From: an uncultured bacterium
GTDB lineage: Bacteria; Planctomycetota; UBA1135; GCA-002686595
Assembly: GCA_937910685.1 (NCBI GenBank)
Contig: CALEMP010000021.1
Location: forward strand, 53,428-117,427
Length of the DNA stretch: 64,000 bases
Reading direction: 5' to 3'
Part shown: positions 32,836 through 53,463 of the stretch, piece after piece
Layout: each line of letters begins with the position of its first letter
How positions within the stretch are numbered: position 1 is the stretch's first letter
Notes under the pieces: generated by a model
Database searches by the model: none
The model's input: only the letters and a program-made list of their open reading frames with translations
What the model was told of the DNA's origin: nothing
Program-made: the position numbers and the translations under genes

Positions 32836-34770
32836 GTGAGCCTTGCAGGTATTGCACTCGATGTCGGACGGTCACAGAAGGTTGATGATGTTGTCGACAT
32901 CGTCACCTTCGTGGAGAGTCCCTGGGGTCTGAACCAACGGCTCTTCCCCGTTCAGCGCATCATCCTCAAAGCTCACTATGGCAACCCACTGGATGACAAT
33001 CCGTGGGGCCTGGACCTCAATGAGCGGATAGACCCGGCTCACCCTGCCTACCAGGAGATTGCCGAACTTGAAGGGGAGGATGAGGGCTACTATCGGCTAC
33101 GGGTGCCCCTCACGAATTGGAGACGGGAGAACCTCGTCTATCTGACGGAGGCCCAGTATCTCCGCAAACTCTTCGATGAAGGTCGATGTAACATCCCAGA
33201 GGTCATTCCCGGAGAGGAACGTAGAGAACTGATACTAGCAGTGGGCAGGCGCAGCGGAAAAACATTCTTGGCAGCTTGTGTCACGGCGTACGAGATCTAC
33301 AAGCTCATCAACCTACAGGCTCCGCAGGAGTACTACGGGCTCCCTAAGACCAATCAGATTGGCATCGTCAGTGTTGCAACGGACAAAGATCAGGCTGGAC
33401 TGCTCTACAATGAGGCATCCGGTCACTTCAGTCAGTGTGCTTTCTTCAAGCCCTACACTGCCAACAACACGATGTCCTATGCGAAGTTCCAAACGCCTGT
33501 CGACATCGACAGGTTCGGGCGGTATTCGGATGACCCATCGGCCAAAGCTACCCTGAAGGTTTCCTTCAAGTCGTGTGTGGCCAAGGGGCTTCGCGGCCCA
33601 GGTAATATCGTCGTCATCCTGGATGAGCTGGCGCACTTCAACGACGCCGGTCAGTCGGACGCCAAGGAGATCTACGGAGCGGTCAAGCCCTCTACCGCTG
33701 CCTTCTCTCCCAAGGATCCAAAGAACCCCACGAAGGCTATTGGTCCGGTTGAAGGGCGGATGATCTCAATCTCGTCGCCTCTCGGGCGACAGGGACACTT
33801 CTACACACTAGCCCAGCAAGCCCTGAAGGGGGGCTTGGCTGCGGAGAGCAAGCTCTTTATCCAAGCCCCCTCCTGGGAAGTAAACATCACCCTGGAGGCA
33901 GGTTTCCTTGAGGGTGAATACGCTTCGGACCCGGTTGCCTTCTTTACGGAGTACGGGGCTCAATTTCTTGATGCCACACGTGGGTGGATTGAAAACCCCG
34001 ACGACCTCCTCGCCTGTGTCAATCCAGAACTGATCCCGCAGATCAAAGGCCCGGCTCTTCGGCCTCATTTCATTGGGATTGACCTCGCGCTGGTTGGTGA
34101 CTGGACGGCGATTGCTATTGGTCACATCGAGGATGGTGGTCTGATCGTTGTGGACTTGGTTGACCGTATCCGGGCGGGTGTGGGTCAGTATGAGCACCTG
34201 GAGCGGCTCGAATTTGAAGATGTTGTGCAGTGGGTTTATGACCTGTCCAAGCGGTTCTACTTTACGGACGGGATCTTCGACCAGTGGGCAGGCATCCCCT
34301 TTGAGCAAGCCCTTTCCAAGAAAGGGCTGTCCCAGCTCAAGTCGGTTCACCACACCAAACCGCTCACCTCGCAAATGTACCAGAACTTCCGGGACATGAT
34401 GTGGGCCAAGCGGCTAGTGCTCTACAACCATCCGGTTGGGCCAGATGGTTACTGTGACTATATCCGGGAACTGCTGGAGCTTCAGGCATCCTATCAGTCC
34501 AAGTACGTGATGGTGGTTGAGGCCCCCAATGTAGATGGCAAGCACGATGACCAAGGGGACGCAATCGTTCGGATGGTTTGGCAGGCTAGCCAACAGCTCG
34601 GGAATCGGAAGTATATTTCAAGAGGTGACCATCGAGGTCAAACTTCCAACGGGCAAGGGATGCAGAAGGCATACATGAAAGCCCTACGTCGGGCTAAATA
34701 CGGTGGTGGGACTAGCACTGATCGGCAGCAGTCCCTCATCAACAGAGGGAGTACACGAGGAAAACGCTGA
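32836..34770 (+). CDS. terL: terminase large subunit
   Basis: Walker A 'LAVGRRSGKTFLAA' and Walker B 'NIVVILDELAHF'. RNase H-like nuclease start 'HFIGIDLALVGDWTAIAIGH'. 644 aa. Confidence 0.8.
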   Translation: MSLAGIALDVGRSQKVDDVVDIVTFVESPWGLNQRLFPVQRIILKAHYGNPLDDNPWGLDLNERIDPAHPAYQEIAELEGEDEGYYRLRVPLTNWRRENLVYLTEAQYLRKLFDEGRCNIPEVIPGEERRELILAVGRRSGKTFLAACVTAYEIYKLINLQAPQEYYGLPKTNQIGIVSVATDKDQAGLLYNEASGHFSQCAFFKPYTANNTMSYAKFQTPVDIDRFGRYSDDPSAKATLKVSFKSCVAKGLRGPGNIVVILDELAHFNDAGQSDAKEIYGAVKPSTAAFSPKDPKNPTKAIGPVEGRMISISSPLGRQGHFYTLAQQALKGGLAAESKLFIQAPSWEVNITLEAGFLEGEYASDPVAFFTEYGAQFLDATRGWIENPDDLLACVNPELIPQIKGPALRPHFIGIDLALVGDWTAIAIGHIEDGGLIVVDLVDRIRAGVGQYEHLERLEFEDVVQWVYDLSKRFYFTDGIFDQWAGIPFEQALSKKGLSQLKSVHHTKPLTSQMYQNFRDMMWAKRLVLYNHPVGPDGYCDYIRELLELQASYQSKYVMVVEAPNVDGKHDDQGDAIVRMVWQASQQLGNRKYISRGDHRGQTSNGQGMQKAYMKALRRAKYGGGTSTDRQQSLINRGSTRGKR

Positions 34771-35024: not shown

Positions 35025-35336
35025 ATGGGAAGACTCAGGGCCAGGACCGCCACCTCACAAGTGGATCGTGATCTCCACTCCAGGTTGGCAAAGGCCATAC
35101 AGGAGTTGGGGGCGGCACGGGACATCTGTGTGCGACTTGGTCGGGACCGGGCTCTCCCTCCCCAAGAGAAGGCCCGTGCTACAGCTACAAGGCAAACTAT
35201 CCAACAGGCGCTTGCGCTTGTGGATAGCATAGGCCACCTGTCGGGACGTTCCAATATGGACTCGGACCTTATGCCCGAAGCGGACAAGCGGCCACGCCGG
35301 GAACAACCTGAGCGCTTCAGTGGGGAGTCTAGCTGA
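35025..35336 (+). CDS. hypothetical small protein
   Basis: 103-aa ORF. The stop overlaps the portal start. Confidence 0.45.
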   Translation: MGRLRARTATSQVDRDLHSRLAKAIQELGAARDICVRLGRDRALPPQEKARATATRQTIQQALALVDSIGHLSGRSNMDSDLMPEADKRPRREQPERFSGESS

Positions 35337-37129
35337 TGGCGCGAACCAATGATCCCAAAGACACCATCGCTGTTCGGGACATCCCTCCCCGAAAAGGTGT
35401 CACCGTTGGAAAACCAAAGAAGATCATCACGTCCGCTATGCGGTCGAAGCTGGCCTTCCCGGCGGCGGGCGGAACCTCAATGGGCATGGGGGGGAACTTC
35501 TACTCCCCTGAACTATCCACCGACTTCCTTGAGCTTCCTCAGTCGATAGATGAGCAGAGGAACTTCTACAGGTTCTTCTACGACCACGACCCCTTTGTTG
35601 GACAAGCCATCGACCTCACCGATGAGCTACCACTCTCCAAAATCCGCTTGCGAATGCCCGAGGCACGGGATCGCAAGCTGGCCGAAGGAGCTTTGCGCCT
35701 CTGCACACGGTGGGCAAAGAAGGTCAACCTGCTTCAACGGCTGTTGGAGATCTCCCATGAGTACAATCTCCTGGGAGAGTGTTTCATCTTTGTCGAGGAC
35801 ACATCTCCTGAAGAGCCCGAGGACTTGCGATATGAACTCCGTCGGGAGGTGACAGCGGAAGGGGACATCGTTGAGGAGAGTTTCAAGCGGGAGGATGCTG
35901 ACGAGCGCGTAGAGGAGTGGCTGAAGAAGAACTACCAGGGTTGGACGGCGATTCGGGTGTTACCCCCGGAGCAGGTCCACATGGAGAGCTTCCCCTTCAC
36001 GGATGAGAAGCTCATCGAACTGATCCCCGACTCAAAGACCAAGGCCATCATCAATCGGGCAGACCAGGGGGATATTCAAGCAATCCGCATCGTGAACTCC
36101 ATGCCACGAGACGTGGTGGAAGCCATCGCGAACGGAGAGAATATCCCGCTCAACATGGACCCCGAAGCAGGGAGCTTTGTTACCTATCTGGCCCGCAAGA
36201 AGAGTCAGTACGAGCCCCGTGGCAAGAGTGTACTACAGCGCTGCCTGCGCTGGTTGATCTTCGCTGATAAGGTTCGACAGAGTCTCACCTCGATAGCTTC
36301 CCGGCACATGACGCCTTACCGGCTCATTTACGCTGAGGACATGGATGCGGGTCAAACCGAGGAGCTTCGGGAACAGGTCGACCTCGCCCTTCAAGATCCT
36401 GACTACAGCATCATCACCAATTTTCAGGTGACCTGGGAGGAAATGGGGGCTGACCAGCGGCTCCCCGATTGGTCCTGGGTCTTTGAGATGGTTGACCGGC
36501 GACTCTATGCCGGTCTTGGGGTCACAGAGACGCTCCTTTCCGGGGAGAGCACCTATTCAGGTGACCGCCTCCACCTGGAAGTCATCAACACCCGGTTCAT
36601 GCTCTTCCGTGAGGTAATGAAGGATTTGGTCGAGGATGGATTCTTCAAACCGATGTGTGCTCGCATGGGGTTCGTGGAAGAGGACGAGGACGGTAACCTT
36701 CAAGTCATCGTCCCCGAACTCTCGTTCACCCGGCTTGCCTTGCGGGACAACAGCGAGACGTTCGACGCCCTGTTCAACCTCTACCAGAAGGGCTCACTGG
36801 ACATCGATATCATCCTCGACCTCCTGAACATTGATCCCGTTGCCACTCGCGAGAAGCTGGAGCGCGACCTGTTCACGGTGAATGACGCAACCTTCAACGA
36901 GGTGTTGCGGGGGGTCTACAGTTCGGTGGGTCAGATGTTGGCGGACAACAGCGACATCGCGAACAAGATCGCTGAAAACCTGGGGCTCAAGTATGAGAAG
37001 CCCAAGGAAGAAGGTGGGGGTCGCTTCGCAAGCATCAAGGATCCTACGGTCACGGTATCCCGGCAGGAGCTGCAGGATTTCATTGCCACAAGGATCACGG
37101 CTGAGTTGGCGGAGCGGGCTACTTCCTGA
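35336..37129 (+). CDS. putative portal protein
   Basis: 597 aa, shortly downstream of terL. 'FYRFFYDHDPFVGQAIDLTDELPLSKI...LLGECFIFVED' resembles the N-terminal part of podovirus-type portals. Called mainly on position and size. Confidence 0.6.
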   Translation: MARTNDPKDTIAVRDIPPRKGVTVGKPKKIITSAMRSKLAFPAAGGTSMGMGGNFYSPELSTDFLELPQSIDEQRNFYRFFYDHDPFVGQAIDLTDELPLSKIRLRMPEARDRKLAEGALRLCTRWAKKVNLLQRLLEISHEYNLLGECFIFVEDTSPEEPEDLRYELRREVTAEGDIVEESFKREDADERVEEWLKKNYQGWTAIRVLPPEQVHMESFPFTDEKLIELIPDSKTKAIINRADQGDIQAIRIVNSMPRDVVEAIANGENIPLNMDPEAGSFVTYLARKKSQYEPRGKSVLQRCLRWLIFADKVRQSLTSIASRHMTPYRLIYAEDMDAGQTEELREQVDLALQDPDYSIITNFQVTWEEMGADQRLPDWSWVFEMVDRRLYAGLGVTETLLSGESTYSGDRLHLEVINTRFMLFREVMKDLVEDGFFKPMCARMGFVEEDEDGNLQVIVPELSFTRLALRDNSETFDALFNLYQKGSLDIDIILDLLNIDPVATREKLERDLFTVNDATFNEVLRGVYSSVGQMLADNSDIANKIAENLGLKYEKPKEEGGGRFASIKDPTVTVSRQELQDFIATRITAELAERATS

Positions 37130-37177: not shown

Positions 37178-37987
37178 ATGGGCTTCAGCAGAACAGCATG
37201 TGTGATCGCGGGTGGCACCTGGGGAGGGAAGCCTTCCCTGCTGAAGATCCGGGACCGGAACTACACACCTCGTGTGAAGCTAATCCGTGATCTAGTCAAG
37301 GGTGTAGAGGCCGTCTACATCTGCGATGTCACCACCGAATGGATTGAAGGACTCAATGAATACGGCATCGGGGTGGTATCTTCGGCTCTCCTGGTTGTGG
37401 ATGATGAGACCGAAAAGAAGGAAGCCAAGAAGTCGCGGGATGGTGACCTCATCCTTGAGGTCTTGGGCCAGAAAACGCTCAAAGCGGCAGTCAGGAAAGC
37501 TGTCGCCAACAAGATCTCCGGGCACACTCTGGTGTCCGACGGCAAAGAGATTTGGGCAGTTGAATACGATCCCGATGAAGCGCCCGAACCGGTAGCCCGG
37601 TGTTTTGAAAAGGATGAGTTGGTCGTCCGTACCAACCACGGGGTGTTCCTGGAGAATGCGGGATACACTACGGGGGCTGACAAGGACTCCTCTCACGAAC
37701 GACGACAGAAGGCGACCACCACCCTCAAGAAGGTGAAGTCACCAGAGGACATTGCTCCATCGCTCATTCACGTTCGACGCAAGAATCGGGAGCACCCCAA
37801 CAACGTGATTCGGGACACGGACAAGATGTCCACCTCGTCCCAGATGGTCCTCATCCCCGGCGACCTGGAGGTGCTGTTCTACCCCATTCCGGGCCGGGTG
37901 GACTTCCTGGGACTGGAGGACAGGCTGCCCAAGGGACGCAAAGGTAAGGTCAAGGTCCGGGTCTTCCACTACTCGGACCTCGCTGCG
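37178..37987 (+). other. domain: Ntn-hydrolase (peptidase C45 / acyl-CoA:6-APA acyltransferase-like)
   Basis: 'MGFSRTA-CVIAGG' (Cys8 after a short propeptide), 'IRDRNY', 'EGLNEYGIGVVSSA', 'LVVRTNHGVF'. Confidence 0.5.
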
Positions 37988-40900
37988 GATAAGCCTGATA
38001 CTCATGAGGTTGAAGGTGACCTCGACCTGTTCCGACTGTTCACTTATGGCTCCATGATAGGTGACCCCCCACAAGCGGGCGACCTGATACGGTCGGAAGT
38101 GGGCACCCTTGAAGGACACCACATCGCGTACAACCGCATGAGTGAAAACCGGGAGTCCCTGGTGATGGGGACAGAGCCGGGAGGGAAGATCGTGGGGGTA
38201 CTTCACGAGTACCCCGTGACCGTTGCTCAAAAAGTGTTGGGATCGGTTGATCGTCGTGAGGGCTTTCGTCCTGACCGGGAAAGGGCGAAGAACAGTTACA
38301 CCCGTACCCCGGTGGTGGTCAAAACCAAGGGTGGTGAGGAAGTGTGGGCGCTGGCCTTCCTCTCCAACCCAGAGCATCCCTCGTACTTCAAGCCCCTGAG
38401 TGTGGCTCAAGCGGTCAAGCAACTCAGCGGGGACGAGGATGGTGCGAAGAAAGGGCGGCGCTACCTGCGGTCCCTGCGACGATTCATGGAGCAGTACGAC
38501 ATTCAGGATGACTACATCATGGGCATCCTGGAAGGGATCGGCTCAAAACCGGACAAGGAGGCCACGGTGAGCACCGGGGCACTGAACCGACGCCACATGG
38601 AGGCATCGAACCACCGGCGGTCCATGGCCCTGGTGAAGTGGCTCTCCGACCTGGCCCGCAAGCTGGGGGTGGGTGAGCACGTCTACGTGGTGGGGGGTGC
38701 CGTTCGGAACTTTGTCCTGAACGCCCCCATCAAGGACATCGACGTGATGATCGACTCGGTCGCCCTGCGTGGCCGGGACAGCGAGTGGTTCGCCAAGGAG
38801 ATCCTCAAGGCGGCCCCGGTGGACATCAACCTCACCACCAACAACTACGGCGTGGCCCTGCTCCATGTGAACGAGGAGTGGATCGTCGGGGGCGAAGACC
38901 TCAAGGGCGAGGACATCGAGATCGCCACCGCCCGCAAGGAGTCCTACGGGGGCGATGGCGGCAAGGGGTACAAGCCGCACCTGGTGGAACCCGCGACGGC
39001 TGCCGAGGATGTGTGCCGCCGGGAGTTCACCTTCAACTGCCTGATGTGGCGACTGCACGACCTGGCCAACGGCCCGGACAAGGCGGAGATCGTCGACCTG
39101 ACCGGGTGCGGGATCTCCGACCTGGCCGAGGGCGTCATGCGATGCCCCTCCGACCCGGACAAGACCTTCTCGGACGACCCCAGCCGCATGGTCCGGGCCA
39201 TCAAGTTCCTGGTGAAGTACGGCTTCCGCATCGACGGGGAGGTGCAAGCCTCCATCAAGCGCAACAAGGCGAAGCTGAAGAACATCCCGCCGTCGCACCT
39301 GGGCTCCATGCTCCTGGACTTCGTCCTCAAGGAGTCCACCGCGACCAAGGCCCTCACGGAGATGGACCGGCTGGGGCTGCTCGACGTCCTCAAGGAGGTC
39401 ATCCAGAAGGACAAGGGCCTGCGGAACACGCTGGCGAACCACGGGGACAGCAGCAACGTCGCCCACATGTTCGTGCTCATGGACTTCGGCCTCCCGTCAG
39501 GGAAGCAGCTGGGGTTCCTGAACCCCCGACAGGTGCAGCGGGTCCGCGACATCACCGTGGAGATGACCGCGTCCGAGGCCAAGGAGTACGTCGCCAACCT
39601 CAACCAGCCGAAGCTGGACAACCGCGCCCTCATGCAGGAGTTCGACCTCAAGGGTGCTGGGATGGGCCAGGTGAAGACGCTGGCCCGCGAGGCCATGCTC
39701 GACAACCACCTGCTCGCCTTCCACCAGGGCAAGCTCACCCAGGCGGTGCGTCGGGCACTGGGCGGGGGCCGCCGTGCGGCATCCTCGGATGTGCAGTACA
39801 TCGGGGTCGTCCTCGACCCCATGGACACGCAGAAGCTGATCCGTCGCTACGGGCAGCTGCACCCCGAACGGCACGCCCACCACATGACGGTGTGGCACTT
39901 CAGGGATTCTTCAGAGGCCCCCCTGCGCCTCCCCTGGGGCCGCACGGTCGACCTGAAGGTCAAGGCCCACCTGGCCGACGACAAGGCCCAGGTCGTGGTC
40001 GTGGACCCGCCCAGGGCGCTTCGCTCGAAGGGGCGGACATCTCACATCACGGTGTCCACCAGCAGCGGCGTCGGCCCGAAGTACAGCAACGACCTGATCC
40101 GCAAGTGGGAGGAGATCCCGGCGGAATCGACTCACCCCACGGTGAGCGGCAAGGTGGCCTGGGTGGACCTGGCGGGGAAGACGCACTTCATGGCACCCCC
40201 GGAGGGGCGTGTTGCCTCGCGGGATGACAGCGAGGGGGACCGTCGCGCACGCCTTCAGGCGGCCAAGCAGTTCCCCGCCAACCTGCTCCCGAACGTCCAC
40301 ACGGTCGTCCCCGCGAAGTACATGGACAAGGTCCCCTACTGGGACGGCATGAAGGAGATCGCGGTCTACCGCAGCGTCCCCGAGGGGATCACGGAGATCC
40401 GACCCGGCGACTGGGTGACCCTGACCAGGAGCTACGCCCGGATCCATGGTCGGGGCACCATCCTGAGCAAGAAGGTGCCCGTGGGCCACGTCTACTGGGC
40501 GGGCACGGACATGAACGAGTGGTTCTACACGCCGGTCGGATCCGGTCGGGTGGCATCGCACACCGAGGTGGTGGTTCAGGGTGGGGGCAAGGAGCGGACG
40601 TTCACCGTCCCCGACTCCTCGGTCCCTCTCCTGCTGGGCGGCCTGCCCGAGGACGCCATCGGACGTGTGGCCGCCCGCTACGCCTCCACGCTGGTCCTGG
40701 ACCATGGGGGGGTGGACACCCGGCACGATGTCCCCGACGACTCCATGCCCCTGCTCTTCAACGCGACCTTCGCGGACGCGGTGAAGGGGGACAGCGAGGT
40801 GGTGGTTGCGGTGGAGCACCTGGTCGAGCGCAAGACGGCCTCGGACGGACCTCGCTACATGCAGGGCAAGCCCCACATGGCGGTCTACAAGAAGCTCTAC

Positions 40901-43438
40901 GACTGGATGCTGACACTGGCCCGGTCGAAGCACCCTGGATCAGGCCGGGCCTACGACCGGATCCAGGTGACCCTCATCGACAACGTGGACCAGGGTGCCC
41001 GGCGGGATCGGCCCGTGGACATGGGCCATCTCAAGCGGTACCTCGCGCAGGCTGTGGAGGCCATGCAGGGGGCCGAGGACTCCAAGGATGTCCGAGTGGT
41101 CGCTGAGATGGCGGCAGTCCTGCGGACAGGACGAATGGCGAAGGTGAACCTGCCCGCGTTGGTCGCGGAGTTCCTCAAGTCCCCGGCGGGGAGCTACCCG
41201 GACCCGATGTCCTGTTCGGACACCAAGGGCCGCTGTGACGGGGTGGCTACCAGGCTCTGCGAGTTCCTGGCGGAGCGTGGGGTGCCCTGCGAGGTGTGGG
41301 AAGGTACGGGCCTGATCCCCCCTCTCGGGAAGGACGCCCACAAGGAGTGGCTGGAGTTCGCGGGCGACCAGCAGAAGTTCCTGTTCCATGTCGTTGCAAG
41401 GGTGGGGAACAAGGTCGTGGATCTGACAGGTGCCCAGTATGGGGCGGCATTTGCGACCCCATACATCAAGCCGTTCTCTGTGTTCAAAGCCCAATGGAAG
41501 AAGGTGAGGCGGTCGCCCATGAGTAAGAGTGCAGATAGGGTTGCCCTTCGCTTCTTGCGTCAAGGATCCAAGCTGGTCTGGAGGTTCAAGGGTTCACAGA
41601 ACCCCTGGGAGCTTGCAACCAGGGCCGGGATCTACGTGTCCCGAGACAAAGAGTTCAAGGCGGGTTACCAGGAGGAAGGCCAACTGGTAGCCGCCCTGTT
41701 CACAAGCGTGAGCGAAGAATGCTTCTCCTTCGATATCGTGGTGGACCCTAACCATCAACGCAAAGGTTACGGGGCCAAGCTTCTTGAGCTTGCCATCGAC
41801 GAGTATGATGAGTTGCTCGACCCCTTCCCGGACATGGTCTTCTGCATTGATGCCGTGAATCCGGTGATGGTTCGTATGCTCAAATCCAAGGGCTTTGAAG
41901 AGACCGGTAAAGAGCAGGGTCACACCCTGATGACCCGACGTGCTTCCAAATTCAAAGACAAGAAGGAGGTGCCCAAAGCAGATGGCAAGGGCACAACCAC
42001 GGTCTATGAGTACAGCGAGAAGCAAGTCCAACATCGCAATCGGGAGAAGGCCAAACGGGTTGAGAAACTCCGCAAGGGGATGTCGGATCTGCGAGCGAAG
42101 TACCGCTCCGACCTGACCAGCAAGGACGACCTCACACGCTATACGGCGTTGGTGGTGGCCCTCATTGATGAAACCTTTGAGCGGGTGGGGAACGAGGGCT
42201 CCGCTAAGGATGGACACTTCGGGGTCACCGGCTGGCGTAAGAAACACATCACCCTGAGTGGGTCGAAGGCAACCATCAAGTACGTCGGCAAGAGCGGCGT
42301 CAGTCAGAGCAAGACGGTCACCGATAAGGGCATCCTGAGTGCTTTGAAGGCTGCTCTAGAGGGCAAGGGGCCAGAGGATCCACTGTGCGAAGGCGACGAG
42401 TGCCGTGTAACTGCCGAGGACGTCAACAAGTACCTCAAAGGCTTCGGGGTGACAGCGAAGGATCTTCGCGGCTTCCACGCCAACAGCGAGATGCAGAAGC
42501 GTCTCAAGGCCATCCGGTCGGGCAAGCTCCCGGAAGACAAGAAGGAGAGGGAGGAGAAGCTCAAGGCGGAGTTCAACAAAGCCCTGGAGGAGACGGCAGC
42601 GGAAGTGGGTCATGAGGCGGCGACCCTCAAGAGCCAATACCTGGTCCCCGGTCTAGAGGACGAGTTCCTCAAGGATGGCACGGTGAGCGAGGGGTTGAAC
42701 AAGCAGGCCGGGGCGTCCCGCAGAGACCTCCTGGATGCCCTGGACCACATGAGTGACAATGCTGGTCGCACCCTACGACTGGCAGATTTCGATGTGTCCC
42801 CTGTCAAGACGGTCAAGCTGGACGACCTCTATGACTATGATGATATCGACAGCTGGGCTGAATTTAGTGAGGGGGAGTTGGCTGACCTGGACCCGGAAGA
42901 AGAACTTGAGGCTGAACTGGAAGGCTTCCGTGGTGCAAGCTGGGCACGTCGGGCTATGACCTGGGTGAAAGCCGGAACGGTGCCGCCCGTAGTGGTTGTA
43001 GAGGCCCAGGAAGCAGTGGGCATTGGGGATGGGCGAGGGCGAATCACACTCGCCCTCGGTATGGGCTGGAGTCAGGTACCAATGGTCAAGTTGACTGAGA
43101 AGACCCACAAGCAAGCCGTCATTCGCGGGGTTCTTCGCACTTTGCTTCAGAAGGCCGACCAGATCAGCGCTGTGTTCGATTGGGGCGTGGCTGAGATGAA
43201 CGGTGTGACAAGCGATCCAGATGACAAGCTTGGTGGTGGTGTCCTGGGTTACGTGTACCGGGTCGGTCGGAACTGGTTCAGCGTCAAGCCTGGGGACCGT
43301 AGCCCCTCACACAGGCAGAGCTTGAGAGATGGTGTCGCTAGCATCCGTCGTGAGGCATGGCGGTCTGTCGGGGTCAACCAGGACAGCGTGAGCAGGGTTG
43401 CTTCGCGTTACCTTCAGCAGTGGGGGTACCCAGGGTGA
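37178..43438 (+). CDS. 2086-aa multi-domain polyvalent protein (probable virion-packaged effector)
   Basis: A single uninterrupted ORF directly after the portal gene. At least eight recognisable catalytic or DNA-binding domains are listed as separate features below. Confidence 0.85.
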   Translation: MGFSRTACVIAGGTWGGKPSLLKIRDRNYTPRVKLIRDLVKGVEAVYICDVTTEWIEGLNEYGIGVVSSALLVVDDETEKKEAKKSRDGDLILEVLGQKTLKAAVRKAVANKISGHTLVSDGKEIWAVEYDPDEAPEPVARCFEKDELVVRTNHGVFLENAGYTTGADKDSSHERRQKATTTLKKVKSPEDIAPSLIHVRRKNREHPNNVIRDTDKMSTSSQMVLIPGDLEVLFYPIPGRVDFLGLEDRLPKGRKGKVKVRVFHYSDLAADKPDTHEVEGDLDLFRLFTYGSMIGDPPQAGDLIRSEVGTLEGHHIAYNRMSENRESLVMGTEPGGKIVGVLHEYPVTVAQKVLGSVDRREGFRPDRERAKNSYTRTPVVVKTKGGEEVWALAFLSNPEHPSYFKPLSVAQAVKQLSGDEDGAKKGRRYLRSLRRFMEQYDIQDDYIMGILEGIGSKPDKEATVSTGALNRRHMEASNHRRSMALVKWLSDLARKLGVGEHVYVVGGAVRNFVLNAPIKDIDVMIDSVALRGRDSEWFAKEILKAAPVDINLTTNNYGVALLHVNEEWIVGGEDLKGEDIEIATARKESYGGDGGKGYKPHLVEPATAAEDVCRREFTFNCLMWRLHDLANGPDKAEIVDLTGCGISDLAEGVMRCPSDPDKTFSDDPSRMVRAIKFLVKYGFRIDGEVQASIKRNKAKLKNIPPSHLGSMLLDFVLKESTATKALTEMDRLGLLDVLKEVIQKDKGLRNTLANHGDSSNVAHMFVLMDFGLPSGKQLGFLNPRQVQRVRDITVEMTASEAKEYVANLNQPKLDNRALMQEFDLKGAGMGQVKTLAREAMLDNHLLAFHQGKLTQAVRRALGGGRRAASSDVQYIGVVLDPMDTQKLIRRYGQLHPERHAHHMTVWHFRDSSEAPLRLPWGRTVDLKVKAHLADDKAQVVVVDPPRALRSKGRTSHITVSTSSGVGPKYSNDLIRKWEEIPAESTHPTVSGKVAWVDLAGKTHFMAPPEGRVASRDDSEGDRRARLQAAKQFPANLLPNVHTVVPAKYMDKVPYWDGMKEIAVYRSVPEGITEIRPGDWVTLTRSYARIHGRGTILSKKVPVGHVYWAGTDMNEWFYTPVGSGRVASHTEVVVQGGGKERTFTVPDSSVPLLLGGLPEDAIGRVAARYASTLVLDHGGVDTRHDVPDDSMPLLFNATFADAVKGDSEVVVAVEHLVERKTASDGPRYMQGKPHMAVYKKLYDWMLTLARSKHPGSGRAYDRIQVTLIDNVDQGARRDRPVDMGHLKRYLAQAVEAMQGAEDSKDVRVVAEMAAVLRTGRMAKVNLPALVAEFLKSPAGSYPDPMSCSDTKGRCDGVATRLCEFLAERGVPCEVWEGTGLIPPLGKDAHKEWLEFAGDQQKFLFHVVARVGNKVVDLTGAQYGAAFATPYIKPFSVFKAQWKKVRRSPMSKSADRVALRFLRQGSKLVWRFKGSQNPWELATRAGIYVSRDKEFKAGYQEEGQLVAALFTSVSEECFSFDIVVDPNHQRKGYGAKLLELAIDEYDELLDPFPDMVFCIDAVNPVMVRMLKSKGFEETGKEQGHTLMTRRASKFKDKKEVPKADGKGTTTVYEYSEKQVQHRNREKAKRVEKLRKGMSDLRAKYRSDLTSKDDLTRYTALVVALIDETFERVGNEGSAKDGHFGVTGWRKKHITLSGSKATIKYVGKSGVSQSKTVTDKGILSALKAALEGKGPEDPLCEGDECRVTAEDVNKYLKGFGVTAKDLRGFHANSEMQKRLKAIRSGKLPEDKKEREEKLKAEFNKALEETAAEVGHEAATLKSQYLVPGLEDEFLKDGTVSEGLNKQAGASRRDLLDALDHMSDNAGRTLRLADFDVSPVKTVKLDDLYDYDDIDSWAEFSEGELADLDPEEELEAELEGFRGASWARRAMTWVKAGTVPPVVVVEAQEAVGIGDGRGRITLALGMGWSQVPMVKLTEKTHKQAVIRGVLRTLLQKADQISAVFDWGVAEMNGVTSDPDDKLGGGVLGYVYRVGRNWFSVKPGDRSPSHRQSLRDGVASIRREAWRSVGVNQDSVSRVASRYLQQWGYPG
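38024..38377 (+). other. domain: gamma-glutamyl cyclotransferase / AIG2-like
   Basis: 'LFTYGSMIGD' (YGS[LM] motif), 'GTLEGHHIAYN', 'VDRREGF...SYTRTPVVVKT'. Confidence 0.65.
38630..39757 (+). other. domain: CCA-adding enzyme / poly(A) polymerase-family nucleotidyltransferase
   Basis: 'VYVVGGAVRNFVLNAPIKDIDVMI' (GGxVR..DxD), 'CRREFTFNCLMW' (RRDFTIN-like), 'DDPSRMVRAIKFLVKYGF' (EDPLRxLRAxRF-like). Confidence 0.8.
39785..40132 (+). other. domain: 2H phosphoesterase (CPDase/LigT/CNPase-like)
   Basis: Two H-x-T-x motifs, 'HHMTVWHF' and 'TSHITVSTSSGVGPKYSNDLI', 55 aa apart. Confidence 0.7.
41195..41497 (+). other. domain: transglutaminase-like / papain-fold Cys-His-Asp core
   Basis: 'GRCDGVATRLCEFLAERGVPCEVWEGTG' ... 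'FLFHVVARVGNKVVDLTGAQYG'. Confidence 0.5.
41585..41947 (+). other. domain: GNAT N-acetyltransferase
   Basis: 'VAALFTSVSEECFSFDIVVDPNHQRKGYGAKLLELAIDEY...AVNPVMVRMLKSKGFEE'. Confidence 0.65.
42125..42667 (+). other. domain: type IB topoisomerase catalytic domain
   Basis: 'ALIDETFERVGNEGSAKDGHFGVTGWRKKHITL', 'IKYVGKSGVSQ', 'VTAKDLRGFHAN', 'EVGHEAATLKSQYLVP'. This is an Arg-Lys-Arg-His-Tyr set in canonical order. Confidence 0.7.
42725..43102 (+). other. domain: ParB/sulfiredoxin-fold (ParB N-terminal-like)
   Basis: 'VKLDDLYDYD...', 'AVGIGDGRGRITLALGMGWSQVPMVKL'. Arg sits where most family members have His. Confidence 0.5.
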
Positions 43439-45843
43439 AGCGGAACCTTTCCGTCAATCGGGTAGCTCAACTGTGGCTTCAACGTGTTGCCACCAAATCC
43501 GACTATGAGAAGGAGGACGAGGAGGTCCGTCGACTCCAACGCCCCCCGCCCAAGAAAAAGCCGCCACGTCATGATCTGCGTCGTGAGACCATCAAGGAGG
43601 ATGACAAGGATACACGCACCCAAGGGGCGGACGAGGACAGGGACTTGTCTCTGAACTACAAGCGCATTGCCTCCATCGACAACCTCACCATCCGCTACCT
43701 CTTCGCACTGGATGACCGGGCGGCAAAGGCAACTCGCAAGCAGAAGGTCGATAAACTGGCACCGGGCAAGTACGACAACAAGACCAGCACCGGGAAGTGG
43801 CGCTCAAAGAATCAGGACGGCACCCAGAAGTACTTTGAGACCAAGGACGAGGCCGAAAAGTACGCTGAAACCAACGACCCCTCTAAGGAAGATAAGCCCG
43901 GCGGTGAGACCAAGGATCCCGACAAGCCTGCACCCGAGGAGAAGGGGGACAGCAAGCCTGAGAAGGAGGAACCTGAAGCCGATGACAAAGAGGAGGAACC
44001 TGAAGCTCCAGCCAAGCCTAAATCGAAGTCCCCACGACAACAACATCGGGAGGAACGTCAGAAGGGCTTAGATGACATGCGGGGGCAAATGAAATCCCTC
44101 TTCGGAGCCTTTGAGACCCCCGAGGAAAAGAAGCTCAAGGCAGAGAAGGCCACCCTCGACAAGCAAGCCGAAGTGGACAAGGCCACCAAGGAGAAGCTGG
44201 AGAACAAGCTCAAGCCCATCAAGGACTTGCACGCTCAAATCAAGAAGCTCGACGAGGAGATCAAGCTCAAGGACGACGACAAGTACAACGACCCCTACCG
44301 GAGCCGGGGTTACGGCGGTGGCAGTGGCGGTGATAGCCTCTCCGATATCTTTGATTCTGACGAGTATCAGGATGAGGCTATTGAGCCCGATGCGGACGAG
44401 AAGGACGCCGAACTCAAGAAGTTGATGATTGAGAAGGCGGACCTGGTTGCCACCATGAAGGAGGAGCTGCAAAAAGCTTCCAAGGAGCAAGAGGAACTCA
44501 AAGAGGTTGAAGCCCGGATGCAGATTAGCAAGGACCGGGGCTATGAGGTGGACGATAAGCTCCGTGACATGGGCGGTGGCTACAGCTACGGACGGGATGA
44601 GGATGAGTCCGCCACCTTCACGCTCAAGCAAGACGAGGCAGCGACACACGCCCGCAAAAGCTTTGAGTCAATGAGCGAGGCAGACCAGGTTGCAGCGGCG
44701 GCAGCTTATCGGGATGCCATCAAGACCATGACGGACGATTGGTCCGACAGCGGTCTCTCCGATGCCCATGTAAGCATGGCGGTGAAGGCCCTGAAGAAGC
44801 CTTTCGCCGGGGTGTCAAAAGCAAGCCCCGAAGAGCGTGGGCGGATGATGGCTGAGTATGCCTTCGCTCGTCGCTTCGTGTTGGACCCCGCTGTCGTGAG
44901 TGGTCATCCCGTATCCGACCAGGAAGAGTCCAGGGAGCAGATGGAGGCACGGGCGATAGCCTCTATGAAGGTCTACGACCGCATGACCCCGGAGCTTCGT
45001 GGTGAAGCTGCTGAAATGGTGTCCAAGCAGCTGGCTCAAGCAGACCCGGACAGTCCTGAATACTCTCAGTTAATGGCAGTGGCACACGGGCTGTACGTCG
45101 CTGCCTTGATGGTGGTGGATGAGGATGGTCGCCCGGAGTCCCTGGACATCAAAGATTCCAAGGGGGAGCGACTCTTCCCGGTACCTTCAGAGAAGGCGAG
45201 CGCCCTTGCTCGTACCTTGAAGAAGAATGGGGACGTGGGCCTGATGTTCGCCCCTCCTGGAAAGTTCTTCGAACCAGAAGGACGTGAGGCGGTTGGACGT
45301 GCCCTGGATTCCCTCAATGACAATCAGCTGAAGGATGCCGTATCTGATGACTGGAAGGAGATTCTGGACCTCCTCACCAGTGTGGATGAATACGGTTTGC
45401 CCGTGGTCAGTTCCGAGATCAGGAACTTCGTTCGGGGGTTTTTGAAGTCGGAAGCCATCAACGACATGACCACGGTGCAGGGGTTTGTGGAAGCTACCTG
45501 CAAGGCCAATGGCATCGACGACGTGAAGGCTATTTTTGAAGAGGGTCGCAAGATGCGGGGCGCTCTCAAGAACAATAAGGATCTGAAGGCTGACCGTGAA
45601 GCACTGCAGAAGTGTATCATGGAAGCTGGGGCGGACCAGGATAGCATTGATGCCTGCCACGAACAGGCCAAGGAACGTCAGGTCAAAGCCCTACAAGCGG
45701 TTCAGGATCACGTGGAAAAAACCTACGACAAACATCCTGACCCGACCGACCCTTCCGTGGCCAGAGCACGAGCTGCAGTGAAGAACAAAGATCCAGAAGC
45801 TCTAGATCTGAAACTCCAAGAGCCCGAAAAAGGGGCTGAATGA
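43435..45843 (+). CDS. 802-aa highly charged Lys/Glu/Asp-rich protein (internal virion or scaffold-like)
   Basis: GTG 43435 overlaps the TGA of the upstream gene. The N-terminus has 'NRVAQLWLQR'. Long low-complexity K/E/D tracts and coiled coils. Confidence 0.6.
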   Translation: MKRNLSVNRVAQLWLQRVATKSDYEKEDEEVRRLQRPPPKKKPPRHDLRRETIKEDDKDTRTQGADEDRDLSLNYKRIASIDNLTIRYLFALDDRAAKATRKQKVDKLAPGKYDNKTSTGKWRSKNQDGTQKYFETKDEAEKYAETNDPSKEDKPGGETKDPDKPAPEEKGDSKPEKEEPEADDKEEEPEAPAKPKSKSPRQQHREERQKGLDDMRGQMKSLFGAFETPEEKKLKAEKATLDKQAEVDKATKEKLENKLKPIKDLHAQIKKLDEEIKLKDDDKYNDPYRSRGYGGGSGGDSLSDIFDSDEYQDEAIEPDADEKDAELKKLMIEKADLVATMKEELQKASKEQEELKEVEARMQISKDRGYEVDDKLRDMGGGYSYGRDEDESATFTLKQDEAATHARKSFESMSEADQVAAAAAYRDAIKTMTDDWSDSGLSDAHVSMAVKALKKPFAGVSKASPEERGRMMAEYAFARRFVLDPAVVSGHPVSDQEESREQMEARAIASMKVYDRMTPELRGEAAEMVSKQLAQADPDSPEYSQLMAVAHGLYVAALMVVDEDGRPESLDIKDSKGERLFPVPSEKASALARTLKKNGDVGLMFAPPGKFFEPEGREAVGRALDSLNDNQLKDAVSDDWKEILDLLTSVDEYGLPVVSSEIRNFVRGFLKSEAINDMTTVQGFVEATCKANGIDDVKAIFEEGRKMRGALKNNKDLKADREALQKCIMEAGADQDSIDACHEQAKERQVKALQAVQDHVEKTYDKHPDPTDPSVARARAAVKNKDPEALDLKLQEPEKGAE

Positions 45844-46684: not shown

Positions 46685-47332
46685 ATGGGTTCAGGTTCAG
46701 CTCGTCAATCCTATGTCGATTACCAACAGAGAGCTTCGGAGTTCTCTGTTGGTGACTCCGTGTACTACTCGATGGATGGTCAAAACCACATCGGGGGTGT
46801 CACAGCCGTGTACCCGGCCATAGGTATGATTGACGTGGAGTACCCTGATGGTAGTGTTCGTCTTCCGGTAGAGGACGTGACCCGCTACGAGTCCAAGGAC
46901 GTTATCCCTCCCGCACTTGAGCACGACAACGTACCGGGTGGGGCAGGGACCGTTCGGGTGCCCGGTGGACCCGTTCCCAGGGCAGCACGGGCCGAACTTG
47001 AAAGGCATGCCAACCGGGTAGCCCAAGCCTGGGTGAAGAAGTCACTCTATTGGGCAGGCAAGGACCGCAAGTACAAGGCAACCTCAGCCGAGATCGCAAG
47101 TGGGAGGTTCTCCTGTCCCAAGTGCAAGAATCACGTGGATGAGGATGAGCCTGTGTACCTTCGCCCCGCCAACTACAAGCGGAGCGAGGGTGTGAGTGAG
47201 CGCCTACTGGGTTGCCCAGAGTGCCTGTTCCTCATCAAGCGTTGTGACATCATCGGGCATCCAGAGTTTGTAGACCCGGATGCCCCCATGGATCCGTTGG
47301 CCCGACACCGTGTAGCTTCGGGGGTGCCCTGA
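46685..47332 (+). CDS. hypothetical protein with zinc-ribbon Cys pairs
   Basis: ATG 46685. 'CPKC...CPEC' and 'NRVAQAWVKK'. Confidence 0.5.
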   Translation: MGSGSARQSYVDYQQRASEFSVGDSVYYSMDGQNHIGGVTAVYPAIGMIDVEYPDGSVRLPVEDVTRYESKDVIPPALEHDNVPGGAGTVRVPGGPVPRAARAELERHANRVAQAWVKKSLYWAGKDRKYKATSAEIASGRFSCPKCKNHVDEDEPVYLRPANYKRSEGVSERLLGCPECLFLIKRCDIIGHPEFVDPDAPMDPLARHRVASGVP

Positions 47333-52587: not shown

Positions 52588-53463
52588 ATGAACAACGTCA
52601 CGAACGCGGTCAAGCAGAAGATCATCGGAGAGTACGTCAAGACCCCCCAGGGTCGCGCCAAGCTCGCCGCTTCCATGACCCAGCCGCTCCGTACGCGGCG
52701 AGACTACGCCGCCGTTGGCCGCAAGACCTTCTTGGTTGAGCAGCTCCCGGACGGTGCCCTTCCGATCTACGACAAGGATCCCGATGTGACGGCCTACGTG
52801 GTTGGTGAGGAGGGTCAGAACATCCTGGCCATCACCAAGCCCAGGCGCGTCATCTTCCCCCTCTTTGAGATCGCGTCCAACCCCGAGATCCCGCTCACGC
52901 AGATCAAGGAGCGACGGTTCGACCTCATCGAGCGCAGTCAGGATCTGGGCCGTGCTCAGATTCAGGCTGCAGAGGACGAGCGTGTCTTCGCGGTTCTCGA
53001 TTCAGTGGCGACCTCTGGCTTCGACAGCCTTCCGGGTCAGTTGAACCCTGACATCCCGGTCATCGCCCCCATTTCGGGTGCGGTCATCGCGGATGCCTTT
53101 GCGCTCATTGAGCGGCACGACCTCCGGGTCGCCCGCATCTACATGAACGCACGGGACTACGCGGATATCCGCAAGTTCGGGCGCGACATCCTCGACATCG
53201 AGTCCCAGGCCACCCTGCTCAAGACCGGACTCCAGGGCGTCATCTACGGCGCTCAGGTGGTCACGAGCCGACTGGTCCCCGTGGGCACGGTCTACCTGGC
53301 CTGTGAGCCCGAAATGTTCGGACGTATCCCCGTACGCACCGAGCTGACCGTCTTGTCCGCAGATGATCCCCGACGTCGTATGATCGGGTTCTCGATCTTC
53401 GAGAACCTCGGCATCGGCGCATACAACCCTCGCGGACTTGCACGACTCACTGTTACCCGGTAA
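52588..53463 (+). CDS. putative major capsid protein (HK97/encapsulin-like size class)
   Basis: 291 aa. Strong GC3 bias. Preceded by scaffold-like and decoration-like genes and followed by two hairpins/terminators. 'RRDYAAVGRKTFLVEQLPDGALPIYDKD' resembles small HK97-fold capsid/encapsulin N-termini. Confidence 0.6.
   Translation: MNNVTNAVKQKIIGEYVKTPQGRAKLAASMTQPLRTRRDYAAVGRKTFLVEQLPDGALPIYDKDPDVTAYVVGEEGQNILAITKPRRVIFPLFEIASNPEIPLTQIKERRFDLIERSQDLGRAQIQAAEDERVFAVLDSVATSGFDSLPGQLNPDIPVIAPISGAVIADAFALIERHDLRVARIYMNARDYADIRKFGRDILDIESQATLLKTGLQGVIYGAQVVTSRLVPVGTVYLACEPEMFGRIPVRTELTVLSADDPRRRMIGFSIFENLGIGAYNPRGLARLTVTR

Follow-up and report, generated by a model that had tools for sequence, protein, structure and literature searches.

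The locus and the question

The locus studied here lies in a 64-kb window (the whole stretch of 64,000 nucleotides that was analysed), in which a gene for a 2086-aa multi-enzyme protein directly follows a portal gene. The question that it raises is whether this gene encodes a real single protein and, if so, whether the protein travels in the phage head. With moderate confidence, we propose that it is a polyvalent protein whose gene belongs to the head-morphogenesis module of a huge, uncultivated phage (contig of at least 326 kb) and that it is probably carried in the head. The polyvalent class is already known; the mosaic combination in the 2086-aa protein is a new variant of it.

The gene is a single open frame

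Translation of positions 37178-43438 on the plus strand gave a single open frame of 2086 aa. A GAGG sequence is located 9 nt 5′ of the ATG codon, and the frame starts 48 nt past the stop codon of a 597-aa gene, the product of which matches the portal family phrog_16240 (1.3e-29). The identical protein is present on four contigs (NCBI, ENA and Logan; the longest is 326 kb), which may share one data set. Two proteins from other samples, P0002 and P0003, are colinear with it (88-91% identical, spanning aa 2-1491 and 2-1222): their frames are unbroken, and they keep the same order and junctions. Moreover, homology to domains was found in every segment of the frame. Because the relatives are colinear without frame breaks and the protein is identical on four contigs, the ORF is neither a frameshift product nor an assembly artefact. 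Thus, the earlier note was right in describing one uninterrupted frame after the portal gene, and frame breaks, which it had named as grounds for giving up this description, are not seen in the two relatives. The features of the locus are collected in Table 1.

Table 1. Features of the polyvalent locus (positions in the window; aa numbers refer to the 2086-aa protein)
Feature	aa	Position	Strand	Basis or remark
Large terminase (TerL)		32836..34770	+	context gene
Portal protein		35336..37129	+	context gene, phrog_16240
Whole polyvalent ORF	1-2086	37178..43438	+	2086 aa; TGA stop at 43436-43438 included
Cys-type Ntn hydrolase, peptidase C45/AAT family	1-272	37178..37993	+	invariant residues; PF03417 matches of homologues
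Gamma-glutamyl cyclotransferase (GGCT)/ChaC-like	283-455	38024..38542	+	Pfam ChaC, GGACT; FTYGSM and E361
Compositional island	~400-1400	38375..41377	+	GC3 and DNA identity
Class II CCA-adding/poly(A) polymerase-family nucleotidyltransferase (NTase)	485-865	38630..39772	+	PF01743, PDB matches, motifs
2H phosphoesterase	870-990	39785..40147	+	tRNA_lig_CPD and two HxT motifs
Small beta-barrel domain (SH3-like?)	1018-1122	40229..40543	+	conserved; motifs IRPGDWV, WAGTDxNEWFY
Region without domain assignment	1125-1320	40550..41137	+	low-confidence model: two short strands, then mostly helical
Transglutaminase/papain-like Cys-His-Asp domain	1322-1452	41141..41533	+	C1353, H1404, D1415, Q1420
GNAT acetyltransferase	1470-1590	41585..41947	+	PF00583
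Type IB topoisomerase (Topo IB)	1600-1850	41975..42727	+	pentad R1687, K1705, R1764, H1812, Y1821
ParB/Srx-like domain	1856-1990	42743..43147	+	GDGRGR at aa 1950-1955; fold matches
Low-confidence helical tail	1991-2086	43148..43435	+	ends in linker motif SRVASRYLQQWGYPG
802-aa partner gene		43435..45843	+	GTG start overlaps polyvalent stop (GTGA)
Prohead protease-like gene with intein		47332..50265	+	context gene
Major capsid protein (MCP)		52588..53463	+	phrog_2522, 3.8e-47

On the extent of the unit, the earlier note has to be corrected, as this ORF is only part of it. The product of the 802-aa gene downstream is 59-60% identical to aa 1710-2459 of P0002 and aa 1639-2395 of P0003; in these fused relatives, its homologue is the C-terminal stretch of ~750 aa. 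Judged by this comparison, the 802-aa gene is the split-off C-terminal part of the 2086-aa protein. Because it is fused to the ORF in close relatives, the functional unit reaches position 45843. The 802-aa product itself matched nothing in Pfam or PDB and nothing meaningful in PHROG. A -1 frameshift that would join the ORF to the 802-aa gene was considered and rejected: no canonical slippery heptamer was seen, though the frame is open for 26 codons before the GTG codon.

The gene lies in a variable slot of the head module

The gene order TerL, portal, polyvalent gene, protease and MCP is conserved in five relatives, namely L002, L003, L008, L009 and L007 (the 485-kb phage LR745208.1). The TerL proteins of the window and L007, the sole pair measured, are about 54% identical. 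The MCP shows 84% identity to its counterpart in LR745208.1. The placement in a head module that had been claimed for the gene is therefore borne out. The slot between the portal and prohead protease genes is a variable "cargo" locus of this phage clade. Topo IB is the module common to the post-portal protein in all six syntenic loci examined, and other modules (2H, NTase, HAD_SAK_1 and others) are present either as separate overlapping genes or within one fused ORF. For example, relatives possess separate 2H and NTase genes located after the portal gene and before the gene of the Topo IB protein, the junction with the polyvalent gene being a start/stop overlap in L003, L008 and L009, and HAD_SAK_1 and Topo IB follow the portal in L007. 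An InPase domain (1.5e-39) and an ART-PolyVal match (26.3 bits, under the cut-off of 31.2) were found in relatives, and neither is present in the 2086-aa protein; both are signature domains of polyvalent proteins.

Domains of the 2086-aa protein

The earlier note had made eight domain calls from the sequence. In our profile and motif check, seven of these held: a Ntn/C45 hydrolase at aa 1-270 with Cys8 after a 7-residue propeptide, a GGCT/AIG2-like domain, a CCA/poly(A) NTase, a 2H phosphoesterase, a transglutaminase-like Cys-His-Asp core, a GNAT acetyltransferase and a Topo IB. The eighth, ParB/Srx, has weak but consistent fold matches alone.

The N-terminal Ntn region (aa 1-270) itself gave no Pfam match at E < 1, and the assignment comes from its homologues: 10 of 16 homologous segments (35-50% identical) match PF03417 (AAT/peptidase C45; best, 7.5e-9). 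The profile of this alignment gave chance matches only against PDB sequences. C8, R25-D26-R27, N60 and R151-T-N-H-G155 are invariant in the alignment, and the sequence before Cys8 is unrelated among all homologues. Cys8 is the predicted nucleophile behind a 7-residue leader. Ntn hydrolases need self-cleavage to expose the nucleophile; therefore, the leader MGFSRTA is predicted to be removed. In most homologues, the Ntn domain is internal to the chain, so that the chain would be cut there by family chemistry. The following GGCT/ChaC-like domain was detected by Pfam ChaC (aa 288-452, 3.1e-5, 24.5 bits with a cut-off of 21) and by Pfam GGACT (aa 287-398). Its YGS[LM]-type motif, F288-T-Y-G-S-M293, hardly varies, two of ten homologues having FTFGSL, and E361, taken as the catalytic Glu of the GGCT fold, is kept in nine homologues and is Asp in the tenth. 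Over about 450 aa, the two domains together are 43-48% identical to eight other proteins, and by this measure they form a conserved pair.

The NTase region matches PolyA_pol PF01743 (aa 502-655, 5.9e-14) and poly(A) polymerases and CCA-adding enzymes in PDB (down to 1.7e-13). Class II enzymes possess a head-domain GGxVRD...DxD signature followed by RRD and EDxxR-type motifs. The corresponding sequences here are GGAVRN (506-511), DID (520-522), RREFTFN (614-620) and DDPSR (666-670), which assigns the domain at the family level (CCA, A or poly(A) addition). The adjoining 2H phosphoesterase was found just above the cut-off with tRNA_lig_CPD PF08302 (aa 912-979, 3.4e-5, 23.9 bits; cut-off, 23), and possesses the motifs H902-M-T904 and H956-I-T958. 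2_5_RNA_ligase2/LigT genes are present at the same locus in relatives. No tRNA genes were found in the 64-kb window.

The stretch at aa 990-1335 had been left without assignment. This description stands for about 200 aa that are poorly modelled; aa 1125-1320 are found only in the two closest relatives. It does not stand for aa 1018-1122, which form a conserved beta-barrel domain with five strands in the structure model (pLDDT about 90). This domain occurs stand-alone and in proteins of up to 5085 aa, sometimes in two copies, and matches the C-terminal part of phrog_2579 (2e-14). It gave no usable match in Pfam, chance matches in the PDB profile search, and only weak and inconsistent small-protein matches in Foldseek, with no assignable fold. 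The label "SH3-like" was chosen from the strand pattern and from SH3 matches at E ~0.1-0.3. Thus, the beta-barrel is a widespread domain without family annotation.

In the transglutaminase-like domain, C1353, H1404 and D1415 are fully or almost fully conserved among 26 homologues, and the model has pLDDT values of 75-97. Weak Pfam matches were found among these 26 members (Transglut_core in two, YunG in four and phage YunG-like in two; E = 0.006-0.025), and the alignment profile gave chance matches only against PDB sequences. The Foldseek list is rich in TG2/TG3 cores, protein glutaminase, SseI and NAT, at non-significant values (E >= 0.4). This call is weaker than the other calls that held. 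The GNAT domain matches PF00583 above the cut-off (aa 1496-1549, 1.9e-5, 25.3 bits; cut-off, 20.7) and possesses the acetyl-CoA motif Q1527-R-K-G-Y-G-A.

The Topo IB domain was clearly detected by PF01028 (aa 1617-1818, 5.7e-28) and by PDB 2f4q (4e-10). R1687, K1705, R1764, H1812 (Asn in 2f4q) and Y1821 align with the active-site motifs of 2f4q, so that the R-K-R-H-Y pentad is complete. For the ParB/Srx-like region, no usable sequence match was obtained in Pfam or in the PDB profile search. In the PDB searches with the Ntn, beta-barrel, transglutaminase-like and ParB-like alignment profiles, the chance matches included HSP90, SH3 of Stac, XPB and selenoprotein S. Its core was modelled by AlphaFold with pLDDT 74-92, and the top 30 Foldseek matches are mostly ParB, Noc, KorB, PadC, sulfiredoxin and Osa, although they are weak and non-significant (E = 7.9e-3 to 1, TM about 0.2-0.4). 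The GDGRGR motif is invariant in this family.

Comparison with known systems

Polyvalent proteins, as set out in the main text of PMC5512222 (Iyer, Burroughs, Anand, de Souza and Aravind, 2017), are packaged in heads and encoded next to portal or MuF genes. They possess two to fifteen distinct, mostly enzymatic domains, and their genes lie in phages or conjugative elements in a portal-terminase, late or head context. The 2086-aa protein has nine recognisable modules and has TerL, portal, protease and MCP genes as neighbours. The likeness lies in many independent effector-type domains per chain, in head-gene neighbours, in the 2H and GNAT superfamilies and, as far as the weak fold matches go, in the ParB/Srx superfamily; in addition, a "Large polyvalent protein associated domain" protein is among the fold matches from BFVD. 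In contrast, MuF, zincin MPTase, ART, SNF2, methylase and PBECR domains are absent, and of the network of domains published for the class (MPTase, ART, MuF, LPDs, InPase, DdrB-ParB, PBECR, 2H and GNAT, among others) only 2H, GNAT and a ParB/Srx-like fold are present.

The main text of PMC5512222 lists 2H, GNAT, Pol-beta NTases and ParB, and makes no mention of Topo IB, Ntn hydrolases, cyclotransferases, CCA enzymes or transglutaminases. Therefore, as far as that main text goes, the combination is not a described architecture, and our literature searches found no description of the architecture of the 2086-aa protein. When 50,697 phage records were searched with the ORF by megablast, no match was obtained, and tblastn against phage records gave single-domain matches only, except for LR745208.1. 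The claim that the combination is undescribed is thus upheld for the main text of PMC5512222, but the protein does not stand alone: metagenomes contain at least 30 related proteins with several domains, which carry the same modules in shuffled order.

The MuF/SPP1 gp7 minor head proteins are encoded in the same slot, after the portal and before the scaffold, protease and MCP genes, and carry variable enzyme cargo on a conserved part. The 2086-aa protein differs in that MuF is absent and the conserved parts are Topo IB, a basic proline-rich motif and an unrelated tail of ~750 aa. Poxvirus Topo IB is packaged in virions. The catalytic domain, with the R-K-R-H-Y residues aligned, is shared with poxvirus-type and PaBG/phiRSL1-type Topo IB (PMC7824862) and with the Deinococcus enzyme (PDB 2f4q). 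Here, however, it is one module of a 2086-aa head-locus chain and is just about 26% identical to the stand-alone enzymes of jumbo phages. HAD_SAK_1 at the locus of relatives is a Pfam family that we take to be named after the "Swiss Army Knife" (SAK) multi-domain RNA repair proteins. The pairing of 2H-type 3′-end healing with a nucleotide-adding enzyme resembles these proteins and the T4 Pnkp/Rnl1 tRNA repair system, whereas the 2086-aa protein possesses neither ligase nor kinase and joins the pair to DNA-, protein- and metabolite-directed enzymes. A literature search on SAK proteins found nothing. According to the main text of PMC5512222, the P1 Dar proteins (DarB and DdrB) and the N4 virion RNA polymerase are huge head-packaged enzymes that are injected and protect or express the incoming DNA. 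The 2086-aa protein is likewise very large, and no sequence relationship to them was found.

Is the protein carried in the head?

Because the 2086-aa protein occupies the MuF/SPP1 gp7 slot of smaller phages, it is probably built into the prohead. Entry into the prohead may take place via the conserved tail protein, and the 2086-aa protein would then enter the cell together with the DNA. Virion delivery is plausible. In the cell, Topo IB would relax the incoming phage genome, and where host nucleases have cut tRNAs in the anticodon or the acceptor stem, the NTase and 2H domains would together restore the 3′ ends. A small molecule with a gamma-glutamyl or acyl-amide bond, for example a glutathione-type thiol, would be hydrolysed by the Ntn/GGCT pair, and the transglutaminase-like and GNAT domains would modify host proteins. 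The substrates of all enzyme domains are those expected from family chemistry. The pre-assembled counter-defence toolkit of the earlier note is a hypothesis and not a result.

It is possible, although we think it less likely, that the protein is instead a non-packaged intracellular multi-enzyme, in which fusion only ensures co-expression and which acts in late replication or packaging (for example, Topo IB may relax DNA ahead of the terminase). Searches with Pfam and PHROG detected neither MuF nor a portal fusion nor another known domain for head anchoring, both for the ORF and for its 802-aa partner, which is in agreement with this idea. Moreover, P0004, a relative that combines Topo IB, Ntn, GGACT and NTase modules, is encoded among replication genes (Toprim, clamp-loader and 5′-3′ exonuclease); thus, the module set is not tied to heads. 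The genomic context of another relative (P0018) was uninformative. In cultured jumbo phages, Topo IB, CCA enzymes and Ntn proteins are also encoded by stand-alone genes that do not lie in head modules (PMC7824862). However, the position between the portal and protease/MCP genes is kept in six loci despite the divergence of TerL in the pair measured. Furthermore, close relatives are fused to a large, low-complexity and charged tail of the kind that internal head proteins typically possess, and anti-nuclease enzymes would be most useful ahead of phage gene expression. We therefore prefer the head-carried polyvalent protein.

Cassette exchange and the linker motif

The composition of the gene is not uniform. 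GC3 begins to climb at about aa 425 and reaches 0.8-1.0 (about 0.9) over aa ~450-1390, as compared with 0.6-0.75 in the flanks. DNA identity to the higher-GC relative L002 is 88-97% in aa ~400-1400 and 73-79% in aa 1-400. A GC3-rich block of 3 kb with higher DNA identity to L002 marks a recent cassette exchange. In addition, the GNAT cassette is missing from the two closest relatives, and cassette insertions are located at linker motifs. From these alignments, modules are swapped among phages, the GNAT and ParB cassettes being insertions and the 3-kb block a recombinant.

The strict linker RVAxRY/F/W occurs 19 times in 39 related proteins, with 0.6 occurrences expected, and lies at module boundaries and protein termini. 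In a wider protein set, it occurs six times with 1.7 expected, and the density of a loosened form in cargo genes is about 1.8 times that in their neighbours. Because the strict enrichment falls in the wider set and the loosened motif is only ~1.8-fold denser, we treat the linker as an observation and not as a demonstrated signal.

The linkers nevertheless bear on a further explanation, namely that the 2086-aa protein is a polyprotein precursor, packaged or not, which is cut by the prohead protease, the gene of which follows four genes downstream, by the N-O/N-S shift of the Ntn domain, or by both, the linkers being recognition or docking sites. We judge this to be rather improbable. The strict linker is strongly enriched at boundaries and termini, relatives carry the same modules as separate genes, and a prohead protease gene is close by. 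In relatives with an internal Ntn domain, which are most of the homologues, the same self-cleavage chemistry would cut the polyprotein. On the other hand, the density of the loosened motif exceeds that in neighbouring genes by a small factor, and the motif may be a mere linker helix maintained by recombination. Also counting against a polyprotein, we know of no prohead protease with RVAxRY/F/W-type specificity.

A more elaborate model, which we put forward as speculative and doubtful, would make the portal-protease slot a capsid-cargo island. Its cassettes would be bounded by a conserved amphipathic tag, (R/K)(V/I)A-x-(R/K)-(Y/F/W)-L, swapped among phages and toggled between single genes and giant fusions. 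The tag may be a capsid-loading or protease-recognition peptide, comparable to encapsulin cargo-loading peptides or the T4 capsid-targeting sequence, and internal Ntn domains may be self-cleavage points. The virion would then deliver a poxvirus-style Topo IB, a tRNA 3′-end repair pair and a glutathione/gamma-glutamyl-degrading pair. Finally, the sharp composition change within the ORF could be a sign that several genes were joined by sequencing or assembly error or that the contig is a chimera of two phages, but the junctions shared with P0002 and P0003 from other samples, the four identical records and the domain homology along every segment of the frame led us to reject this reading.

Significance of the locus

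If the 2086-aa protein is packaged as we propose, the range of virion-delivered effectors would be extended to DNA topology (Topo IB, as in poxviruses), to template-independent rebuilding of tRNA 3′ ends and to hydrolysis of small-molecule amides and gamma-glutamyl compounds. These three activities are absent from the catalogue in the main text of PMC5512222. If it is not packaged, the protein remains a multi-enzyme fusion that is well documented, although by the standards of huge phages an ordinary one. The locus also draws attention to the abundant beta-barrel domain that has no family annotation. Moreover, it is a natural example of cassette exchange within a gene, with a datable recombinant block and with gene fission and fusion at conserved linkers, both of which could inform attempts to engineer capsid cargo.

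An intact multi-enzyme gene within a phage head module

The DNA of the window is part of a large phage. Upstream genes encode a class II ribonucleotide reductase, RecA, a RecD2-like helicase and a clamp loader. Another upstream gene encodes a 344-aa protein in which sigma-70 region 4 occurs twice, as separate domains, and no other sigma regions were detected; this protein is possibly a transcription factor of the phage. Shortly before the head module comes the gene for a 421-aa protein, perhaps a depolymerase or part of a fibre. In the head module, TerL is followed by a pair of small genes, portal, the 2086-aa polyvalent ORF, the 802-aa gene, two further small genes, a protease-like gene, a 513-aa gene, a 197-aa gene and the major capsid protein (MCP). 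The closest deposited genome is LR745208.1 (an uncultured phage, 485 kb), with identities of 54% for TerL, 64% for portal and 84% for MCP.

Coordinates of the features in the window and in the 2086-aa ORF
Feature	Window position	ORF residues	Match
344-aa sigma-70 region 4 protein	22392-23426		
421-aa protein	25460-26725		weak pectinesterase-like (beta-helix)
TerL	32836-34770		
Portal (597-aa product)	35336-37129		phrog_16240, 1.3e-29; weak Pfam Portal_Mu
Polyvalent ORF (+ strand)	37178-43438	1-2086	
Ntn/C45-like segment		1-270	
GGCT		288-452	ChaC, 3.1e-5; GGACT also matched
GC3 island	38375-41377	~400-1400	
NTase		502-655	PolyA_pol, 5.9e-14
2H		912-979	tRNA_lig_CPD (2H family), slightly over cut-off
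~105-aa conserved domain	40229-40543	1018-1122	
TGase-like domain		1322-1452	
GNAT		1496-1549	Pfam GNAT, 1.9e-5
Topo IB		1617-1818	Topoisom_I, 5.7e-28
Probable ParB/Srx domain		1856-1990	
802-aa partner	43435-45843		
Prohead-protease-like gene with intein	47332-50265		
513-aa protein	50262-51803		
MCP	52588-53463		phrog_2522, 3.8e-47
706-aa ORF	53605-55725		

The polyvalent ORF is genuine, because its 2086 codons are open without a break, the identical protein is recorded on four contigs (the longest of 326 kb), and two proteins from other samples are colinear with it: P0002 (2460 aa) over aa 2-1491 and P0003 (2396 aa) over aa 2-1222, at 88-91% identity across the pair. A GAGG box precedes its ATG, which lies 48 nt downstream of the stop codon of the portal-family gene. 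Thus, the single long frame directly after a putative portal gene described in the earlier note stands, and it lies within the head module.

The protease-like gene is split by an intein (Hint and LAGLIDADG_3, about aa 130-600), which the orthologues of L002 and LR745208.1 lack and those of L003 and L009 have; in L009, TerL is a second intein-bearing gene. The 706-aa ORF right after MCP has a LAGLIDADG_2 homing endonuclease together with several HTH motifs and part of an N6/N4 DNA methylase domain, and looks like a homing-endonuclease insertion; the same site holds a 310-aa LAGLIDADG gene in L002 and a 1229-aa version in L007. The 513-aa protein carries EF-hand calcium-binding motifs (aa 260-304) and a charged low-complexity tail. 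It is possibly the scaffold; EF-hands are unusual in a protein at the scaffold position.

Domain composition of the ORF

The NTase, Topo IB, GNAT, GGCT and 2H domains that the earlier note had read from the translation were all recovered by direct Pfam matches. PolyA_pol was accompanied by a neighbouring RNA-binding region. In NCBIfam and PDB searches, the NTase matched poly(A) polymerases and CCA-adding enzymes (1.7e-13 and weaker), and Topo IB matched Deinococcus 2f4q (4e-10), then human and poxvirus enzymes. The motifs of the NTase (GGAVRN, DID, RREFTFN and DDPSR), both HxT motifs of the 2H domain and QRKGYGA of GNAT are intact. Alignment with 2f4q shows that the catalytic residues R1687, K1705, R1764, H1812 and Y1821 are kept, and FTYGSM and E361 of GGCT are kept across homologues.

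The N-terminal 270 aa gave no direct family match, but they belong to a family of 35-50% identical segments, 10 of 16 of which match PF03417 (AAT / peptidase C45). C8, RDR25-27, N60 and RTNHG151-155 are invariant. The proposed Ntn/C45 identity is therefore supported through homologues, and not by a match of the ORF itself. In most homologues the domain is internal, not N-terminal, and in eight other proteins Ntn and GGCT form a conserved pair. The cultured jumbo phage Chryseobacterium phage MA9V-1 encodes a stand-alone 274-aa Ntn/C45-like hypothetical protein (152544-153368, 35% identity), which could give an experimental handle on this domain.

An exhaustive HMMER search with aa 990-1470 collected 703 proteins, which split into two distinct families. 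The first (aa 1018-1122) is strongly conserved, with the motifs IRPGDWV and WAGTDxNEWFY, and occurs in hundreds of metagenomic proteins, from stand-alone forms of 110-140 aa to giants of 5085 aa, at times in two copies. It has no match in Pfam or PDB and corresponds to the C-terminal part of phrog_2579, labelled 'ParB C-terminal domain'. Its AlphaFold model (pLDDT about 90) has a helical lead-in followed by five strands, and we tentatively regard it as SH3-like. In the second family (aa 1322-1452), His, Asp and Gln are invariant and a Cys is nearly so. The structure model is confident, and Foldseek listed transglutaminase 2/3 cores, protein glutaminases, SseI and arylamine N-acetyltransferase. 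These residues and neighbours are in line with a TGase-like assignment; no Foldseek E-value was significant, and Transglut_core and YunG matched some members weakly. Against viral predicted structures, the model found phage proteins at probability 1.0, one of them named for a large-polyvalent-protein-associated domain. The intervening aa 1125-1320 gave a poor model and, outside the ORF, occur solely in P0002 and P0003.

An invariant GDGRGR runs through the four homologues of the C-terminal domain (aa 1856-1990), for which no family was found at the sequence level. Its model core has a pLDDT of 74-92, and the structures nearest to it are, almost without exception, ParB, Noc, KorB, PadC, sulfiredoxin and Osa. 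The E-values are weak (8e-3 upward), and we regard the proposed ParB/Srx identity as probable rather than established.

Fission and fusion at related loci

Five related loci share one gene order with the window: TerL, a pair of small genes, portal, the protein that contains Topo IB, protease and MCP, with further genes around the protease. Therefore, Topo IB is present in six of six cases, including the window; the other modules vary. Between portal and protease, L002 (P0002) has a 2460-aa fused polyvalent ORF. The polyvalent ORF is preceded by a 438-aa 2H gene in L003 (P0013), by separate 2H and PolyA_pol genes in L008 (P0021), and by a small 147-aa gene and a single 885-aa 2H+PolyA_pol gene in L009 (P0015). 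In these three loci, the module gene immediately before the polyvalent ORF overlaps its start. L007 (LR745208.1) has a 508-aa protein with HAD_SAK_1 and Topo IB. Thus, the same modules occur in a fission/fusion continuum at a conserved head-module position. InPase is also found in relatives, and ART-PolyVal weakly. Head linkage is not universal: replication genes surround P0004, and the surroundings of P0018 are uninformative.

The GTG start of the 802-aa gene overlaps the TGA of the ORF. Its product has no family match; its identity to P0002 and P0003 over their final ~750 residues is 59-60%, and there it is fused to the polyvalent ORF, and its segments recur within other relatives. The P0002/P0003 junction reads ...LNKQ-GSVDRLTERWLQATKDTYEKEDEE... 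In the window, LNKQ is followed by an inserted ParB-like cassette that ends in ...SVSRVASRYLQQWGYPG-stop, and the 802-aa protein picks up after it with ...LSVNRVAQLWLQRVATKSDYEKEDEE... By these alignments, the functional unit reaches past the ORF into the 802-aa gene. Within the first ~90 aa of the 802-aa product is a basic proline-rich motif, RPPPKKKPPRHDLRRE, which recurs in many relatives including the 508-aa LR745208.1 protein. P0002 and P0003 also lack the GNAT cassette, which is inserted in the ORF between ...RVALRF and RRASKF-KDKKEVPK where they read RVAAKF-QKKKEVPK.

Both insertions are flanked by a linker motif with the approximate consensus (R/K)(V/I)A-x-(R/K)-(Y/F/W)(L), found at module junctions and protein termini. 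Strings of the type R[VIL]A[SAL]x[YFWL] mark module boundaries of the ORF at aa 1163, 1454 and 2073, with close variants at aa 865, 1011, 1124 and 1587. Among 39 related proteins, the strict pattern was observed 19 times against 0.6 expected from shuffles. Enrichment was weaker in a wider protein set (6 against 1.7) and with a loosened pattern. The strict pattern lies within about 15 residues of the N-terminus in separate 2H genes and close to the C-termini of several polyvalent ORFs; cargo genes of L003, L007, L008 and L009 also carry the motif at an N- or C-terminus. Among the roles it may have are linker helix, recombination joint, protease site and loading tag.

A recently exchanged block

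The ORF contains a sharp island, aa ~450-1390, in which GC3 is 0.86-1.0; on either side, over aa 1-400 and from about aa 1400 onward, it is 0.6-0.75. In the L002 phage (64% GC), GC3 is about 0.85-0.9 along the whole gene. DNA identity to L002 is 73-79% over aa 1-400, rises to 88-97% over aa 401-1400 and collapses beyond. Other samples show the same joins, which excludes an assembly chimera as the cause of the island. From the island and the jump in identity, the 3-kb NTase-2H-barrel-middle-TGase block was exchanged recently with a higher-GC relative. Such a recombinant block is direct evidence of cassette traffic within the gene.

Relation to polyvalent proteins

Head-packaged polyvalent proteins are a published concept (PMC5512222). 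The main text of that paper covers 2H, GNAT, Pol-beta NTases and ParB and is silent on topoisomerase IB, Ntn hydrolases, cyclotransferases, CCA enzymes and transglutaminases. A later survey (PMC7824862) lists jumbo phages with stand-alone Topo IB and CCA-adding enzymes. No published description of the architecture of the ORF was found in the literature, in agreement with the earlier note, which did not recognise the combination. The ORF resembles MuF/gp7-type proteins in gene position. Because of this analogy and the published concept, we infer that the protein may be incorporated into the prohead and delivered with the DNA; we likewise infer the substrates of the individual domains. The polyvalent concept is already established; new here are the modules that the chain contains, a cargo locus centred on Topo IB and the documented exchange of cassettes, details that merit experimental follow-up.
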